From positions 1 to 4,277 of the IMG/VR virus record IMGVR_UViG_2585427792_000010: a stretch of DNA of 4,277 nt; one strand, 5' to 3'. Source of the stretch: a virus. Its lineage: Duplodnaviria; Heunggongvirae; Uroviricota; Caudoviricetes. The notes below the pieces were generated by a model. The model saw only the letters and a list, made by a program, of their open reading frames with translations. It searched no databases and was not told where the DNA came from. A program made the position numbers and the translations under genes. Shown in pieces: positions 1-4,277 of this stretch. The first letter of the stretch is position 1. Every line of letters begins with the position of its first letter.

Positions 1-25
1 ACCTCGGTTTACAGGAAACGGTAAA
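1..25. repeat. Left inverted repeat / crossover site of the invertible segment, truncated by the window edge
   Basis: Positions 1-25 (acctcggtttacaggaaacggtaaa) are the exact reverse complement of 3055-3079; the first mismatch is at position 26. Position 1-17 corresponds to the inner half-site plus centre of the 26-bp site at 3063-3088. Confidence 0.7.
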
Positions 26-962
26 TCAGGCTTCTGGCGCATTACAGAAAAACCAGAACGGCGCAGATATTCCGGGAAAAGATACCTTCACCAAAAATAT
101 TGGGGCCTGCCGCGCATATAGCGCATGGCTGAATATTGGTGGCGATAGTCAGGTCTGGACAACCGCGCAATTTATTTCGTGGCTGGAGAGTCAGGGAGCA
201 TTTAACCATCCTTACTGGATGTGCAAAGGCTCATGGACTTATGCAAATAATAAGGTCATTACAGATACAGGTTGCGGAAATATTTGTCTTGCAGGTGCTG
301 TGGTGGAAGTTATTGGCACTCGCGGCGCAATGACCATACGCGTTACCACGCCGAGCACGTCCAGCGGTGGCGGAATTACTAACGCTCAATTCACTTATAT
401 TAATCATGGTGATGCTTATGCTCCTGGCTGGCGACGAGACTACAACACGAAAAATCAACAACCTGCATTTGCTTTAGGGCAAACAGGAAGCACTGTCGGA
501 AATGATAAAGCTGTTGGCTGGAACTGGAATAGCGGGGTCTATAACGCAAACATTGGTGGCGCATCGACATTAATCCTCCACTTCAATATGAATACGGGGA
601 GCTGCCCTGCTGTACAGTTCCGCGTGAATTACAGGAACGGCGGTATTTTTTATCGTTCAGCGCGTGATGGTTATGGATTTGAGGCTGACTGGTCAGAGTT
701 TTACACCACGACCCGCAAACCCTCTGCGAGAGATGTTGGTGCATACACGCAGGCAGAATGTAACTCAAGGTTTATTACAGGTATTCGCCTTGGCGGTCTG
801 TCATCTGTTCAGACATGGAATGGCCCCGGCTGGTCTGACAGGTCAGGTTATGTCGTTACGGGTTCAGTTAACGGAAACCGTGATGAATTAATTGATACAA
901 CTCAGGCAAGGCCAATTCAGTATTGCATTAATGGGACGTGGTATAACGCGGGGAGTATTTAA
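3..962 (+). CDS. Start-less alternative tail-fibre C-terminal (receptor-binding) cassette (S'v / Hv'-like); silent in this orientation, expressed only after inversion fuses it to the constant part of the fibre gene
   Basis: My own translation shows the frame of track ORF 219..962 is open from position 3 with no stop. It begins LGLQETVN, identical to residues 391-398 of the minus-strand fibre. It ends ...RPIQYCINGTWYNAGSI, resembling the fibre C-terminus ...RPIQKYINGTWYNVAQV. No convincing SD precedes the Met at 219. Confidence 0.8.
   Translation, partial: LGLQETVNQASGALQKNQNGADIPGKDTFTKNIGACRAYSAWLNIGGDSQVWTTAQFISWLESQGAFNHPYWMCKGSWTYANNKVITDTGCGNICLAGAVVEVIGTRGAMTIRVTTPSTSSGGGITNAQFTYINHGDAYAPGWRRDYNTKNQQPAFALGQTGSTVGNDKAVGWNWNSGVYNANIGGASTLILHFNMNTGSCPAVQFRVNYRNGGIFYRSARDGYGFEADWSEFYTTTRKPSARDVGAYTQAECNSRFITGIRLGGLSSVQTWNGPGWSDRSGYVVTGSVNGNRDELIDTTQARPIQYCINGTWYNAGSI
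950..955 (+). promoter_or_regulatory. Shine-Dalgarno-like GGGGAG for the plus-strand chaperone gene, embedded in the last codons of the alternative fibre cassette
   Basis: GGGGAG at 950-955, 9 nt upstream of the ATG at 965 (12 nt from the ATG at 968). Confidence 0.4.
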
Positions 963-964
963 CG

Positions 965-1498
965 ATGATGCACTTAAAAAACATTACTGCTGGCAACCCT
1001 AAAACAAAAGAGCAATACCAGCTAACAAAGCAATTTAACATCAAATGGCTTTATTCAGATGATGGAAAAAACTGGTATGAGGAACAAAAGAATTTCCAGC
1101 CAGACACTTTGAAAATGGTCTATGACCATAACGGCGTTATTATTTGTATTGAAAAGGATGTTTCAGCAATTAATCCAGAAGGCGCAAGCGTCGTTGAATT
1201 ACCTGATATTACAGCAAATCGCCGGGCTGATATTTCGGGTAAATGGATGTTCAAAGATGGCGTAGTGATAAAGCGAACTTATACCGAGGAAGAACAGAGG
1301 CAGCAGGCAGAGAATGAAAAACAAAGCCTGTTGCAACTTGTCAGGGATAAAACCCAGCTATGGGACTCACAGCTACGGCTGGGCATCATTTCCGACGAGA
1401 ATAAACAAAAATTAACAGAGTGGATGCTCTTTGCGCAGAAAGTCGAATCGACAGACACTTCCAGCCTGCCAGTAACGTTTCCCGAACAACCAGAATGA
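965..1498 (+). CDS. Alternative tail fibre assembly chaperone (U'/Tfa'-like paralog), partner of the silent alternative fibre tip
   Basis: 177-aa [27 protein letters not shown].... Roughly 70% identical by eye to the minus-strand chaperone over the first ~110 aa, then a divergent C-terminal ~60 aa. Starts 2 nt after the stop of the upstream cassette (960-962). GGGGAG at 950-955 is a plausible SD. The homologous start may be the second ATG at 968. Confidence 0.87.
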   Translation: MMHLKNITAGNPKTKEQYQLTKQFNIKWLYSDDGKNWYEEQKNFQPDTLKMVYDHNGVIICIEKDVSAINPEGASVVELPDITANRRADISGKWMFKDGVVIKRTYTEEEQRQQAENEKQSLLQLVRDKTQLWDSQLRLGIISDENKQKLTEWMLFAQKVESTDTSSLPVTFPEQPE

Positions 1499-1501
1499 GA
1501 G

Positions 1502-1529
1502 AAGGCCCGCAATCGGGCCTTAATTTTTA
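1502..1529. terminator. Putative intrinsic terminator hairpin between the convergent chaperone genes
   Basis: Perfect 8-bp GC-rich stem (aaggcccg 1502-1509 and cgggcctt 1514-1521) with a 4-nt loop (caat), followed on the plus strand by aattttta. It lies in the 28-bp gap between the stops of the two convergent genes (1498 and 1527). The U-tract is weaker for the minus-strand transcript. Confidence 0.5.
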
Positions 1530-2054
1530 CTCTGGTTTTTGTGGCCATTCAGGCTTTGCCGTATCCACACGGCTGACCAGAACGCTGTAGCGTTCCCATG
1601 ACTCCAGTCGTGCGCGCTCCTCATCCGTCGCCATATTCAGCCTGACAGCGCGTTCCAGCGGCTGGATGACTGATTCAGCTTCGGAAAGCAATGCGGCCTT
1701 TTGTGATTCGGCTTGTTGTTGCTGTTCGTCTGCCGTATAAATCCGTTTAACTACAGCTCCATCCTTAAACATCCACTTTCCTGAATCATCAGCGCGGCGA
1801 TTGGCTGTAATATCGGGAACCTCAACGACGCTAAAACCTTCAGGGTTAAGCGTGGATGCATCTTTGGTGATGGCGACAATAATATTATTTTCATCGTAAA
1901 CAATCTTTATTGTATCTGGTTGAAAGTTTTTCACTTCCTCATACCAGTTTTTACCGTCTTCGGACCATAACCAGATAACATCAAAATTCTTTGTTAGCTG
2001 ATATTGTTCTTTCGTTTTAGGATTACCAGACTTAATATTTTTTAAATGCTGCAT
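1527..2054 (-). CDS. G: Tail fibre assembly chaperone (P2 gpG / Mu U / lambda Tfa family), partner of the currently expressed fibre tip
   Basis: 175-aa ORF starting [24 protein letters not shown]..., which I recall as matching P2 G. ATG at 2054-2052 lies 3 nt after the fibre stop (2058-2060). An AGGTG Shine-Dalgarno (2061-2065, minus strand) sits 6 nt upstream of the ATG, inside the 3' end of the fibre gene. Stop TAA at 1527-1529. Confidence 0.88.
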
Positions 2055-2057
2055 AAT

Positions 2058-4277
2058 TTACACCTGTGCTACGTTATACCATGTGCCATTGATGTATTTT
2101 TGTATTGGTCTGAAGATGGCTTCATCATCGCCATCTACTTCACCAATGATTCTTAATCCGGTAATTGCGTGTCCGGCTTTTTCATAACGACCACCACGCG
2201 CCATCAATTGAACAACACGTGTGCCAAGTCGGACATCTCTCACATAGCGTGAGTCAAAATTGCCATAATTTCCGGGAATAATTTGCGCACCGCAAAGCCA
2301 GTTGCCATTGTTGTCCATGTACGCCTGACCATCGGTGCCATTGGCTGTCCTTGAATTATTAATCATGTAAAAACCAAACTGGTAGTTACCAAGTCCACCG
2401 ACAAAAAATTTGCGTTCTGCATGGTCTTGTCTTAACAAAGCCTGCGCAGAACTTGTTGATACTGCGTTTCTACCAAAAATGACATTCTGGTTTCGCATAT
2501 CAATCCATGAGGTTGAGCCACTATTAATAGCAAACCTGTTTGCATACACCCAGGCGTTAGTTGTTATATCTCCTGTAACATCCAGACCATGCCCCATAGT
2601 TATGCGGCCAGTTCTGAGATTAAGCGTAAAGGGACGTAGTGGCCCTATATCACCATTTTCCCCCTCATTCTCTCGTGTAGGGATGATATGCAGGCATTCT
2701 TCAGAACGGCGAAAAATGGCACCAAAAGATGAATTAAATATCCTCAGTGCATTGACTGTCGATATTTTTACTTCACTGCTGAAAAGGGCTTTAACAAGAA
2801 CAGACAAAGCACCCCATTTAAGATTCATCAGGTCTTTTGTTGTGGTGCTTTGTTTGCTTCTCCATTTGAAATATTCATTGCCGTTGTCGCCTGTTTCAAA
2901 CCACATGTATGAATCAGTGTCGCTGTCGGCATCATTTTTAAATCCAATCTTTGCCCAGTCAGTATTTCGAATCCAGGCAAGGATTGAGTCGTTTTCAAAA
3001 GTAAGCCCACCGGATAAGGTATCGCCTGTCTTTTGAACGGCGTTACCAGCCCTGTTTACCGTTTCCTGTAAACCGAGGTATTCGATAACGGCGGCAACGG
3101 TCGATTTCGCAAGAATATCCCGCCCGACTTTTGTCAGGGTTGCCAGGCTGGCGACATCATTCCCCGTAAAATACGGAAACCTGTCTGCCGCAGTAGCAAG
3201 CCCGGCCAGCGCCGTCAGGGTGGCATCTTTCGGTTGCTTACCCGCAAGCGCGTTAGTCATGGTGGTCGCAAAATTCGGGTCGTTGCCCAGCGCCGCCGCT
3301 AACTCGTTCAGCGTATTCAGTGCGTCAGGCGACGAGTCTACAAGGGCGGCAATCGCGGCCATCACATAAGCCGTACTTGCGATCTGAGTATTATTAGTAC
3401 CTTTTGGCGCAGTTGGCGTTGTTGGCGTTCCGGTCAGTGCAGGACTATTTAAGGGCGCTTTCTTGTTCGTTTCATCCATTACCGCCTTAACCGCTTTCGA
3501 TGTCGCGGCCAGTGTTTCAGACGTGCTGTTGGTGGCACTACTGAGCTGGACTATCCCTTTTTGTGCCGTCGTGGCGTCCTGAGCGGTATATTTTGCGTTA
3601 GCAAGGTCATACGCGGCCTTTACTGCTTTCGGCGTTGCAGCCTGCGTTTCAGACGTGCTGTTGGTGGCGCTACTGAGCTGGACAAGGCCTTTTCGCGTCG
3701 TGCTGGCATCCTGCGCAGTATATTTACCGTTAGCAAGATCATACGCGGCCTTTACTGCTTTCGGCGTTGCAGCCTGCGTTTCAGACACGCTGTTAGTGGC
3801 GCTACTGAGTTGAACAAAGCCTTTTGCGGTCAGCGAGGCGTCCGGGTGACGTCGTGACTGTTCATGCTCTTTCAGTTTGTCATCCACGTAATCCACTGTG
3901 GCCATCACCATGGTGTTATCCACGGTAAGCGCCACGGTGGCAGTGCTGGATACGGTCAGAATGGTGCGAAATGTTTGTGCACGACCGGACCCTTCGGCAA
4001 CGGCTGGCTTGTAACTTTCGGCAGTATTTCCCACCGCGATTAAATCGCCGTGCTCATCAAATACACCAATTTCCCGGATCCAGAATCCGCCCGTTTCAGG
4101 AGGAATAACCAGCTCCGCAATAATGCGGTTCTGATGTGTTGCGTCCAGGATGACGCGATTAACAGTATGTCGCCACACCTCATGCACCAGACGGGTCTGC
4201 TTACTGTTTGGTGTGGGCAACGTGCCGCCACCGTCGCCCACGGCCATATGAGTCAGGCGGACAGGCTTACCATCTGG
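2058..4277 (-). CDS. H: Phage tail fibre protein, P2 gpH-like; 5' end runs off the window. Constant N-terminal shaft about 3077-4277, currently joined variable receptor-binding C-terminus 2058-3076
   Basis: 729-aa ORF on the track (2058..4247). My translation of 4248-4277 in the same frame (PDGKPVRLTH) has no stop, so the Met at 4247 is internal. From memory, the N-terminal region (MAVGDGGG..., IAELVIPPE..GGFW, ESYKPA.AEGSGR) and the C-terminal end (GNFDSRYV.DVRLGTRVVQLMARGGRYEKAGH.ITGLRIIGEVDGDDEAIFRPIQKYINGTWYNVAQV) match P2 tail fibre H. Contains 44-aa tandem repeats with the QLSSATNSTSET.AATPKAVK motif typical of phage fibres. Stop TAA at 2058-2060. Confidence 0.9.
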   Translation of the reverse strand, partial: PDGKPVRLTHMAVGDGGGTLPTPNSKQTRLVHEVWRHTVNRVILDATHQNRIIAELVIPPETGGFWIREIGVFDEHGDLIAVGNTAESYKPAVAEGSGRAQTFRTILTVSSTATVALTVDNTMVMATVDYVDDKLKEHEQSRRHPDASLTAKGFVQLSSATNSVSETQAATPKAVKAAYDLANGKYTAQDASTTRKGLVQLSSATNSTSETQAATPKAVKAAYDLANAKYTAQDATTAQKGIVQLSSATNSTSETLAATSKAVKAVMDETNKKAPLNSPALTGTPTTPTAPKGTNNTQIASTAYVMAAIAALVDSSPDALNTLNELAAALGNDPNFATTMTNALAGKQPKDATLTALAGLATAADRFPYFTGNDVASLATLTKVGRDILAKSTVAAVIEYLGLQETVNRAGNAVQKTGDTLSGGLTFENDSILAWIRNTDWAKIGFKNDADSDTDSYMWFETGDNGNEYFKWRSKQSTTTKDLMNLKWGALSVLVKALFSSEVKISTVNALRIFNSSFGAIFRRSEECLHIIPTRENEGENGDIGPLRPFTLNLRTGRITMGHGLDVTGDITTNAWVYANRFAINSGSTSWIDMRNQNVIFGRNAVSTSSAQALLRQDHAERKFFVGGLGNYQFGFYMINNSRTANGTDGQAYMDNNGNWLCGAQIIPGNYGNFDSRYVRDVRLGTRVVQLMARGGRYEKAGHAITGLRIIGEVDGDDEAIFRPIQKYINGTWYNVAQV
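2061..2065 (-). promoter_or_regulatory. Shine-Dalgarno (AGGTG) for the minus-strand chaperone gene, embedded in the last codons of the fibre gene (translational coupling)
   Basis: The minus-strand sequence upstream of the ATG at 2054 reads agcacAGGTGtaaattATG, giving a 6-nt spacer. Confidence 0.5.
3055..3079. repeat. Right inverted repeat, inside the fibre coding sequence at the constant/variable junction
   Basis: Exact 25-bp reverse-complement match to window positions 1-25. Encodes LGLQETVN of the fibre protein. Confidence 0.7.
3063..3088. other. Candidate 26-bp serine-invertase crossover site (gix/cix/pix/hix-like): TTCCTGTAAACC-GA-GGTATTCGATAA
   Basis: Imperfect palindrome of two 12-bp half-sites (TTCCTGTAAACC, and TTATCGAATACC on the other strand) around a central GA dinucleotide. 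The left half and centre are the part duplicated at the window start. From memory it closely resembles the Mu gix site; this was not verified by alignment. Confidence 0.6.
3477..3845 (-). repeat. In-frame tandem repeat, 132-bp period (44 aa), about 2.7 copies, in the constant shaft of the fibre gene
   Basis: The motif gtttcagacgtgctgttggtggc recurs at 3514, 3646 and 3778 (with variants), a spacing of exactly 132 bp. The protein shows KGFVQLSSATNSVSETQAATPKAVKAAYDLANGKYTAQDASTTR, then KGLVQLSSATNSTSETQAATPKAVKAAYDLANAKYTAQDATTAQ, then KGIVQLSSATNSTSETLAATSKAVKAV.... Confidence 0.85.

Follow-up and report, generated by a model that had tools for sequence, protein, structure and literature searches.

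The PF03406 family (Phage_fiber_2, phage tail fibre repeat) and its place in the gene architecture considered here have already been published. In gpH of phage P2 (NC_001895, 669 aa), a PF12571 N-terminal domain is followed by a PF03406 array that starts at about residue 170 and by a segment that begins ALTGTPTTPTA, and a gene for a tail fibre assembly protein (Tfa) lies downstream. P2 has two units, which are 59% identical to each other in DNA, and a fixed C-terminal region without an invertible cassette. Invertible tail-fibre regions have been described in prophages Phi1 and Phi4 of Escherichia coli EC958, in a study that treats inversion and contains no analysis of repeat copy number (PMC4134206). 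Pf2 (PF03406) units are also found in the collagen-like fibres EPclA/B of EHEC prophages and in lambda Stf, in which length differences between alleles are whole numbers of structural periods (collagen, 3 residues; coiled coil, 7 residues) (PMC3368898).

We analyzed 4,277 nucleotides of a caudoviricete record (IMG/VR IMGVR_UViG_2585427792_000010, positions 1–4,277; hereafter, the window). The features of the fibre locus are as follows.

1..17, + strand: partner crossover site (ACCTCGGTTTACAGGAA), cut by the window start and situated within the inverted repeat 1–49 / 3031–3079
3..962, + strand: silent alternative C-terminal fibre segment (Sv', Mu S' type), which matches 8ju3 and is open from the crossover site through to its stop
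965..1498, + strand: alternative tail fibre assembly gene (U'), PF02413
1527..2054, − strand: tail fibre assembly gene (U/G type, Caudo_TAP), PF02413 with E 3e-37, co-oriented with the active fibre gene
2058..4277, − strand: tail fibre gene (P2 H / Mu S type), comprising the constant part and the currently fused variable part, with its 5' end outside the window
3063..3088, − strand: crossover site of 26 bp for a DNA invertase (TTATCGAATACCTCGGTTTACAGGAA), which bounds the invertible segment
3089..3440, − strand: constant post-repeat shaft segment (ALTGTPTTPTAPKG...VAAVIEY)
3837..4277, − strand: baseplate-proximal N-terminal fibre domain, PF12571 with E 2.8e-44, profile positions 32–149

The P2-type gpH fibre of this P88-like prophage is confirmed to carry three PF03406 units, which follow immediately on its baseplate-attachment domain. 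The PF03406 profile matches three stretches with a combined 195.6 bits (family cut-off 22; E 7e-59), the best of which spans profile positions 1–42 of 42, and the protein has the tandem units of about 40 residues and the tail-fibre context that define the family. Like P2 gpH, it combines a PF12571 N-terminal domain, whose first ~25 codons lie outside the window (the P88 start is MSTTTRKFKTVITDTGAKKLAQAAAPDGKPVRLTHMAVGD), with a Tfa gene (PF02413) immediately downstream, and it shares the same post-repeat segment, in which a 9-bp mini-repeat at 3404–3429 encodes a linker rich in Thr and Pro. The region shared with P2 is ~83% identical in DNA, but there are three units here versus two in P2. Baseplate genes J and I are immediately upstream of the fibre gene in every homologous locus that we fetched; here, their place is outside the window. 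Escherichia phage P88 (Xuanwuvirus) is 96.3% identical over all 4277 nt, has three likewise arranged units and the same invertible cassette, and differs by point differences only; the two are in practice the same element.

The array is located in the constant, N-proximal part of the gene, upstream of an invertible host-range cassette of the Mu G / P1 C type, in which inverted 26-bp sites flank two opposed Sv + U sets. The crossover site at 3063..3088 is identical to the 5' site of EC958 Phi4 (PMC4134206, Table 3), and EC958 matches window positions 3080–4277 at 97.5% identity with no length difference. A DNA invertase gene adjoins the cassette in P88 and in Yersinia phage vB_YpM_39; in this locus, its place would be outside the window. 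DNA identity to the G segment of Mu and the C segments of P1 and P7 is 90–96% in the variable part and the assembly genes. Mu gpS (PDB 5yvq, 9ki1) has one PF03406-like unit ahead of the crossover point, compared to three here, and an unrelated N-terminal baseplate domain. EPclA/B and lambda Stf share with this fibre the principle of in-frame length variation, but their variable segments are collagen and coiled-coil tracts rather than Pf2 units, and their N-terminal domain is PF08400.

The initial annotation proposed in-frame 132-bp tandem repeats in the fibre shaft, and three measures agree with it. Tandem Repeats Finder (TRF) reports one array at 3484–3825 (period 132, 2.6 copies, 86% matches, no indels, score 481), a gapless repeat search yields three copies at 3484–3579, 3616–3711 and 3748–3843 with a spacing of 132 nt, and identity at a lag of 132 is 75% over 264 nt, compared to 27.6 ± 2.9% (maximum 33%) in other 396-nt windows. 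Positions 3441–3836 of the minus strand form three head-to-tail units of 44 aa, 132 nt being 44 codons. Each unit is delimited by its translation and a PF03406 stretch.

3705..3836, − strand: repeat unit 1 (U1), 44 aa, SLTAKGFVQLSSATNSVSETQAATPKAVKAAYDLANGKYTAQDA
3573..3704, − strand: repeat unit 2 (U2), STTRKGLVQLSSATNSTSETQAATPKAVKAAYDLANAKYTAQDA
3441..3572, − strand: repeat unit 3 (U3), TTAQKGIVQLSSATNSTSETLAATSKAVKAVMDETNKKAPLNSP
3739..3786, − strand: 48-nt stretch of U1 that is the same as 3607–3654 in U2, the longest exact run
3607..3654, − strand: partner 48-nt stretch in U2
3561..3857, + strand: antisense open reading frame (ORF) of 98 aa, a by-product of the repeat; in homologues, the antisense stop-free stretch grows with the number of units

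Between U1 and U2, identity is 85% at the DNA and 89% at the protein level, whereas U3 is 61–65% identical to them in DNA and 57–61% in protein. This lower identity is due to the last ~14 residues of U3: its core is conserved, and its tail goes specifically with the P2-type module downstream. The description of about 2.7 "nearly identical" units therefore suits U1 and U2 but not U3, and the extent originally given, 3477–3845, fits the stretch that is similar in DNA, although U3 extends ~40 nt past its start. The 48-nt run is bounded by U1/U2 differences at unit positions 50 and 99, with none between, and U2 and U3 share a 23-nt run. U1 and U2 differ in 14 codons, nine of them synonymously in the fibre frame. 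The synonymous differences spare the 17 central codons (permutation P = 0.023), a pattern that fits homogenization by conversion.

Copy number varies among relatives in steps of 132 bp, as had been suspected. P2 H has two units, fewer than here, as the initial annotation stated, and P88 has three; among complete E. coli chromosomes, T28R has two, GPEC389 and EC361 have four, and UID2309220033 has six. In fibres with at least 96%-identical N-terminal domains, 66 IMG/VR loci carry 1, 2, 3, 4, 7 or 8 units, and all sources together provide 1, 2, 3, 4, 5, 6, 7 or 8. Even proteins with 100% identical flanks (147 aa upstream and 120 aa downstream) vary, with three versus four units. Three units predominate among the best 120 protein matches (three in 107, four in 12, five in one and six in one), a ranking that favours more units. 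A DNA search over 5,426 complete E. coli genomes, with BLAST pieces merged, listed rows that are a spread sample and not the full distribution; of those spanning the array, 13 of 22 have three units and nine have two, and a further row indicates one, with alleles of more than three units being under-detected. Farther away, one unit is the norm. Among relatives that share the N-terminal domain, 150 cluster representatives carry 0 (n = 2), 1 (n = 95), 2 (n = 36), 3 (n = 13), 4 (n = 3) or 5 (n = 1) units, and a scan of species-representative genomes, which serves as an outgroup and is of no use for recent events, retrieved only distant relatives (53–61% identity, mostly Xenorhabdus and Photorhabdus), in which 61 of the 64 loci with a complete fibre ORF have one unit and three have none. 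All alleles with 1–8 units remain in frame, in line with the expectation that gain or loss of units would leave the frame intact.

The junctions within these alleles point to the way in which units are gained and lost. In locus L083 (four units), unit 2 is an exact DNA match to the head of U2 joined to the tail of U1 of the window, with the switch within the 48-nt run, and unit 2 of the complete EC361 chromosome is likewise a U2 head with a U1 tail. Locus L101 has the reciprocal product, a U1 head with a U2 tail followed by U3, and its chimeric unit is otherwise without differences. The exchange interval of the four-unit and two-unit recombinants falls within the 48-nt stretch shared by U1 and U2, as judged by the chimeric units of L083, L084 and L101. 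Locus L085 has a third unit made of a U3 head and a U2 tail, joined in the region of the 23-nt run. Loci L083 and L084 have the same sequence for 2000 nt on the upstream side of the array and for 1000 nt on its downstream side and differ solely by one unit, locus L095 has a duplication of two units (264 bp), and locus L103 contains three identical units.

We therefore consider it very likely that this is a PF03406 array whose copy number is altered by out-of-register exchange, and that relatives carry one to eight copies because their units recombine in this way. The long identical stretches (48 nt between U1 and U2, 23 nt between U2 and U3) would permit homologous exchange one unit out of register, either by replication slippage or by unequal crossover, whether between sister genomes or between co-infecting ones. 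Such exchange would gain or lose whole 132-bp units with the frame kept, and over evolutionary time it could lead to arrays of one to eight units between flanks that are otherwise nearly the same. Slippage or unequal recombination had been suggested from the window alone, and it has gained support from chimeric junctions in the longest identical runs and from the presence of both reciprocal products. The conserved core of the unit also acts as the joining point of unrelated distal (receptor-binding) modules.

That last role underlies an alternative in which copy-number differences come mainly from horizontal swaps of whole arrays and distal modules between the fibre genes of different phages, with the unit core as a homology patch and intragenic unequal exchange as a minor contributor. 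P2, Mu/P1 and 'NDNANGRVP' distal module classes do join at one point within the last unit, vB_YpM_39 combines an unrelated N-terminal domain with the same array and distal region, and the modal unit number differs between distal module classes. Swaps leave unexplained, however, both the runs of identical internal units and the alleles on identical flanks in which the additional or absent unit is exactly chimeric between units of the window's allele (L083, L084, L101 and EC361), and we regard the alternative as somewhat unlikely in this strong form. Horizontal and intragenic exchange are compatible and probably both operate, and part of the copy-number variation may stem from horizontally exchanged modules and not from intragenic events.

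How readily the array changes is a separate question, and here the initial annotation, which called it a possible hotspot, went too far. All 19 sampled full-coverage rows from complete E. coli genomes (at least 91.6% identity, several of them ST131) have exactly the length of the query, and no within-clone variation in copy number was seen among the rows sampled. Because close relatives mostly retain three units, the rate of copy change is probably low, 'hotspot' is a relative term, and the array does not appear to be hypermutable. We consider it very unlikely that the array is a high-frequency contingency locus that changes within cultures or clones in the manner of phase variation. Within clones, the sampled close genomes, ST131 included, have three units throughout, and a single short-read pair, L083 and L084, whose neighbouring accession numbers possibly denote one project, differs by one unit on identical flanks. 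Units are merely 61–85% identical, the best protein matches mostly have three units despite a ranking that favours more, and units of a whole number of codons leave no room for on/off switching. A contingency locus that switches by frame or promoter spacing was rejected, as 132 nt are 44 codons and the alleles are in frame. At the opposite extreme, the unit number could be fixed in this lineage and its apparent variation could be noise from assembly or annotation. Many of the proteins with four to six units are indeed 'partial' proteins from draft contigs, the contigs of L083 and L084, whose lengths differ by exactly 132 bp, come from short-read assemblies, and in the short-read assemblies of L084 (five units) and L103 (eight units), runs of identical units cannot be counted reliably. 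Yet alleles with two, four and six units are present in finished chromosomes, hundreds of complete genomes have the three-unit allele, among them that of EC958 (PacBio only), and the four-unit chimera is provable by ~50 nt of read because diagnostic SNPs flank the 48-nt run. Noise is thus an extremely unlikely explanation, and the array itself is not an assembly artefact. Least probable of all, with next to no chance of being correct, is the proposal that the + strand ORF at 3561..3857 is a real overlapping gene for whose sake the repeat is maintained. The frame is open for 98 aa, as the initial annotation described, and its product has a weak Pfam match to a holin, which at 20.1 bits is below the family cut-off of 25.4, with no Pfam match above cut-off. 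In every homologue examined, both the length and the limits of the antisense stop-free stretch change with unit number (P2, 74 aa; T28R, 90 aa; others, 134, 147, 178 and 311 aa), and the preponderance of synonymous U1/U2 differences in the fibre frame also speaks against such a gene. We therefore reject the ORF as a gene, in agreement with its earlier designation as spurious.

It is a reasonable inference that copy number alters shaft length, with each unit probably adding a fixed increment to a trimeric shaft and this increment probably mattering for reaching the receptor. Tail fibres are trimers, and an AlphaFold2 monomer run folds single chains; our monomer model of residues 88–350, based on a 19-row alignment, had a pLDDT of 36.8 and a pTM of 0.17 and was discarded as unusable. 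Sequence searches of the PDB retrieved Mu gpS as the sole unit-bearing protein, and in the cryo-EM structure of Mu, the N-terminus of the fibre alone is modelled and the unit-bearing region is unmodelled (PMC11915804).

The copy variation described here is essentially of a known kind, the expected variation of tail fibres, and it leaves the understanding of these proteins unchanged. Our literature searches found no paper that explicitly describes polymorphism of PF03406 copy number in the H genes of P2-like phages. In annotation, differences of a multiple of 132 bp between the fibre genes of P2-like prophages mark alleles of one gene and not separate genes, and short-read assemblies can miscount arrays with identical units. 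For evolutionary studies, the reciprocal two- and four-unit recombinants cleanly illustrate unequal homologous exchange within a structural gene of a phage. For the engineering of phages and tailocins, the units are natural in-frame sites at which shaft length could be altered or distal receptor-binding modules grafted.

A further-reaching proposal, which we regard as unlikely, is that the array is a 'length rheostat' under selection and at the same time a universal splice joint. Unequal exchange would then tune the unit number to the depth of O-antigen or capsule for a given receptor-binding module, and the ~90-nt core would be a homology patch for distal swaps among P2-like, Mu-like, P1-like and lambdoid phages. 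If the rheostat part were true, class-specific modal unit numbers would reflect co-adaptation; among the IMG/VR loci, the modal number is three with P2-type distal modules, four with the 'VNGK' type and two with the Mu/P1 type.

The window comes from the tail-fibre end of a P2-like prophage. Over its 4277 nt it aligns in a single piece, at 96.3 per cent identity, with Escherichia phage P88 (genus Xuanwuvirus), and its constant part is 97–98 per cent identical to many E. coli prophages, including ETEC4088 and the ST131 strain EC958. Pfam assigns to the fibre PF12571, the N-terminal domain of the P2 type (E = 2.8e-44), a Gp34_trimer-like segment and, in three stretches, the 'Phage tail fibre repeat' PF03406 (195.6 bits; cut-off 22); a Caudo_TAP assembly gene lies downstream.

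2058 to >4277, minus strand: tail fibre gene (first ~25 codons past the window end)
3705–3836, minus strand: repeat unit U1, fibre reading frame
3573–3704, minus strand: repeat unit U2, fibre reading frame
3441–3572, minus strand: repeat unit U3, fibre reading frame
3063–3088, minus strand: 26-bp crossover site TTATCGAATACCTCGGTTTACAGGAA, in agreement with PMC4134206, Table 3
2058–3062, minus strand: active variable fibre segment Sv
1527–2054, minus strand: active assembly gene U
965–1498, opposed to the active pair: silent U'
3–962, opposed to active Sv and U: silent Sv', open throughout
1–17, plus strand: partner crossover site, cut by the window start

The 132-bp tandem repeats described in the initial annotation are real and were correctly read there. 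TRF reports an array at 3484–3825 (period 132, 2.6 copies, 86 per cent matches, 0 indels), a gapless repeat finder gives three copies at 132-nt spacing, and identity at lag 132 is 75 per cent, compared with 27.6 ± 2.9 per cent elsewhere in the window. The units had been called nearly identical, which holds for two of the three: U1 and U2 are 85 per cent identical in DNA and 89 per cent in protein, with an exact common run of 48 nt (3739–3786 in U1, 3607–3654 in U2). It does not hold for U3 (61–65 per cent DNA identity), which has the ~30-residue core of U1 and U2 but a distinct tail, VMDETNKKAPLNSP, and shares an exact run of 23 nt with U2. Immediately after the array, a 9-bp mini-repeat (TTGGCGTTG, 2.9 copies, 3404–3429, plus strand) encodes the Thr/Pro-rich linker TPTTPTAPK; the linker at this place differs among homologues (TARQG, TAPKG and TAQQG).

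Copy number varies on all scales examined, from 0 to 8 units in the comparison of homologues that the initial annotation had proposed. Its statement that P2 H has fewer copies was accurate: direct translation gives two units in P2 H (669 aa) and three in P88. The array is 132 nt shorter than that of the window in phages P2, Wphi, R18C, HQ103, pro147 and Shae_phiSM, and of the same length in P88, 520873, 503458 and P884B11. E. coli chromosome assemblies from the RefSeq complete-genome set encode two (T28R), four (GPEC389, EC361) or six units (UID2309220033); the words 'complete genome' stand in the titles of T28R and EC361, and 'whole genome shotgun sequence' in those of GPEC389 and UID2309220033. 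Among the best 120 protein matches to an HMM made from the window's own units, 107 have three units, 12 have four, one has five and one has six; because this ranking favours higher unit numbers, alleles with more than three units are a minority. Cluster representatives with the N-terminal domain (n = 150, 50 per cent identity) carry no unit in two cases, one in 95, two in 36, three in 13, four in three and five in one. Distant species-representative loci (Xenorhabdus, Photorhabdus and others; 53–61 per cent identity) have a complete fibre ORF in 64 of 79 cases, with one unit in 61 of these 64 and none in three. IMG/VR contigs with an N-terminal domain at least 96 per cent identical (66 loci) have 1, 2, 3, 4, 7 or 8 units, the largest arrays being those of IMGVR_UViG_2579778952_000011 (L095; seven) and IMGVR_UViG_2609459857_000006 (L103; eight). 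In all cases compared, the array starts directly after ...EHEQSRRHPDA and has a period of 44 aa.

These gains and losses show the hallmarks of homologous exchange in register. In the four-unit draft-assembly locus L083, unit 2 matches U2 at positions 1–50 and U1 at positions 99–132, the switch falling within the 48-nt identical run; the remaining units are U1, U2 and U3, the first and last of them carrying single point changes. A U2 × U1 exchange would be expected to yield this duplication product, and the complete EC361 chromosome encodes the same arrangement, chimeric second unit included. The two-unit locus L101 is the reciprocal deletion product: a U1 head joined to a U2 tail with no other difference, then U3, behind an upstream flank 99.7 per cent identical to the window. 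Another locus (L085) has a U3-head/U2-tail chimera joined around the 23-nt run, L095 has a duplicated two-unit block (264 bp; units 3–4 equal units 5–6), L103 has three identical units in succession, and some protein pairs have three versus four units between 100 per cent identical flanks. Synonymous differences between U1 and U2 tend to keep clear of their 17 central codons (P = 0.023 by permutation), which suggests occasional conversion between them. The chimeric units and the reciprocal products (L083/EC361 versus L101) bear out the earlier proposal that unequal recombination or slippage alters copy number; the route could be either RecA-type unequal crossover or replication slippage, both compatible with the data. 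Neither this copy-number polymorphism nor its reciprocal recombinants were found described in the searchable literature, though both are what a specialist would expect.

An assembly artefact was ruled out for the window array: no run shared by its units exceeds 48 nt, so they are distinct enough for unambiguous assembly, and the three-unit allele is found again in hundreds of finished genomes, among them that of EC958, which rests on PacBio reads only. Caution applies only to draft alleles with consecutive identical units, namely L084 (five units) and L103 (eight). L084 equals L083 plus one extra copy of the chimeric unit, with flanks identical over 3 kb; either the array changed very recently or identical units were miscounted from short reads. 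The two assemblies have neighbouring accession numbers (L083, GCA_014529285.1; L084, GCA_014527595.1), and their contigs (44,593 and 44,725 bp) differ by exactly 132 bp.

The array does not appear to be hypermutable. Across spread samples drawn from complete E. coli genomes, every full-coverage match listed at 91.6 per cent identity or more, several ST131 strains among them, has exactly the query length, and three units strongly predominate among the closest proteins listed. The term length-variation hotspot is fair over evolutionary time, but it does not describe a contingency locus. Because 132 = 3 × 44, unit gain or loss cannot shift the frame. More units would lengthen the shaft; no solved structure has a modelled repeat unit, and an AF2 monomer model of the repeat region was unusable. 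The antisense ORF was rightly dismissed as spurious: no family match reaches the cut-off, and the stop-free stretch scales with unit number in the homologues examined (74 to 311 aa). The ORF is a side effect of the tandem repetition, since the unit happens to have no antisense stops.

The array lies within the constant part of the fibre and upstream of the inversion switch. Window 1–3088 is a complete invertible host-range cassette of the Mu G/P1-P7 C type inside the P2-like prophage, with 90–96 per cent DNA identity to the P7, D108, Mu and P1 segments. Many homologous fibre proteins (P0001–P0014 and others) are annotated 'partial', their draft contigs ending within the fibre gene; a likely cause is that both orientations of the invertible segment coexist in the sequenced population, which PMC4134206 reports for EC958.

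Several unrelated distal regions start at one point within the last unit, just after ...AATPKAVK, and each class is found with several unit numbers:

P2 type: ..VMDETNKKAPLNSP ALTGTP
Mu/P1 type: ..YDNAEKRLQKDQNG
third type: ..NDNANGRVPS.RKVNG

Yersinia phage vB_YpM_39 (OR545053.1, 4558–6912; a 49-kb phage) has the window-type array, post-repeat region and invertible cassette behind ~180 N-terminal residues without a PF12571 match in Pfam. Together with the shared joint, this argues that horizontal module exchange probably contributes to diversity alongside intragenic exchange. One vB_YpM_39 unit lies 56 rather than 44 aa from its neighbour, with an inserted linker, AGKAPSNHTHSWEQITNVPVASLTVRG. 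Among the IMG/VR loci (L090–L155), unit numbers are 1–3 (mode 3) for the P2 type, 3–7 (mode 4) for the 'VNGK' type and 1–8 (mode 2) for the Mu/P1-type 'G.DI.DK', and these class-specific numbers may mean that shaft length and receptor-binding module are adapted to each other, or simply that the members of a class share ancestry.
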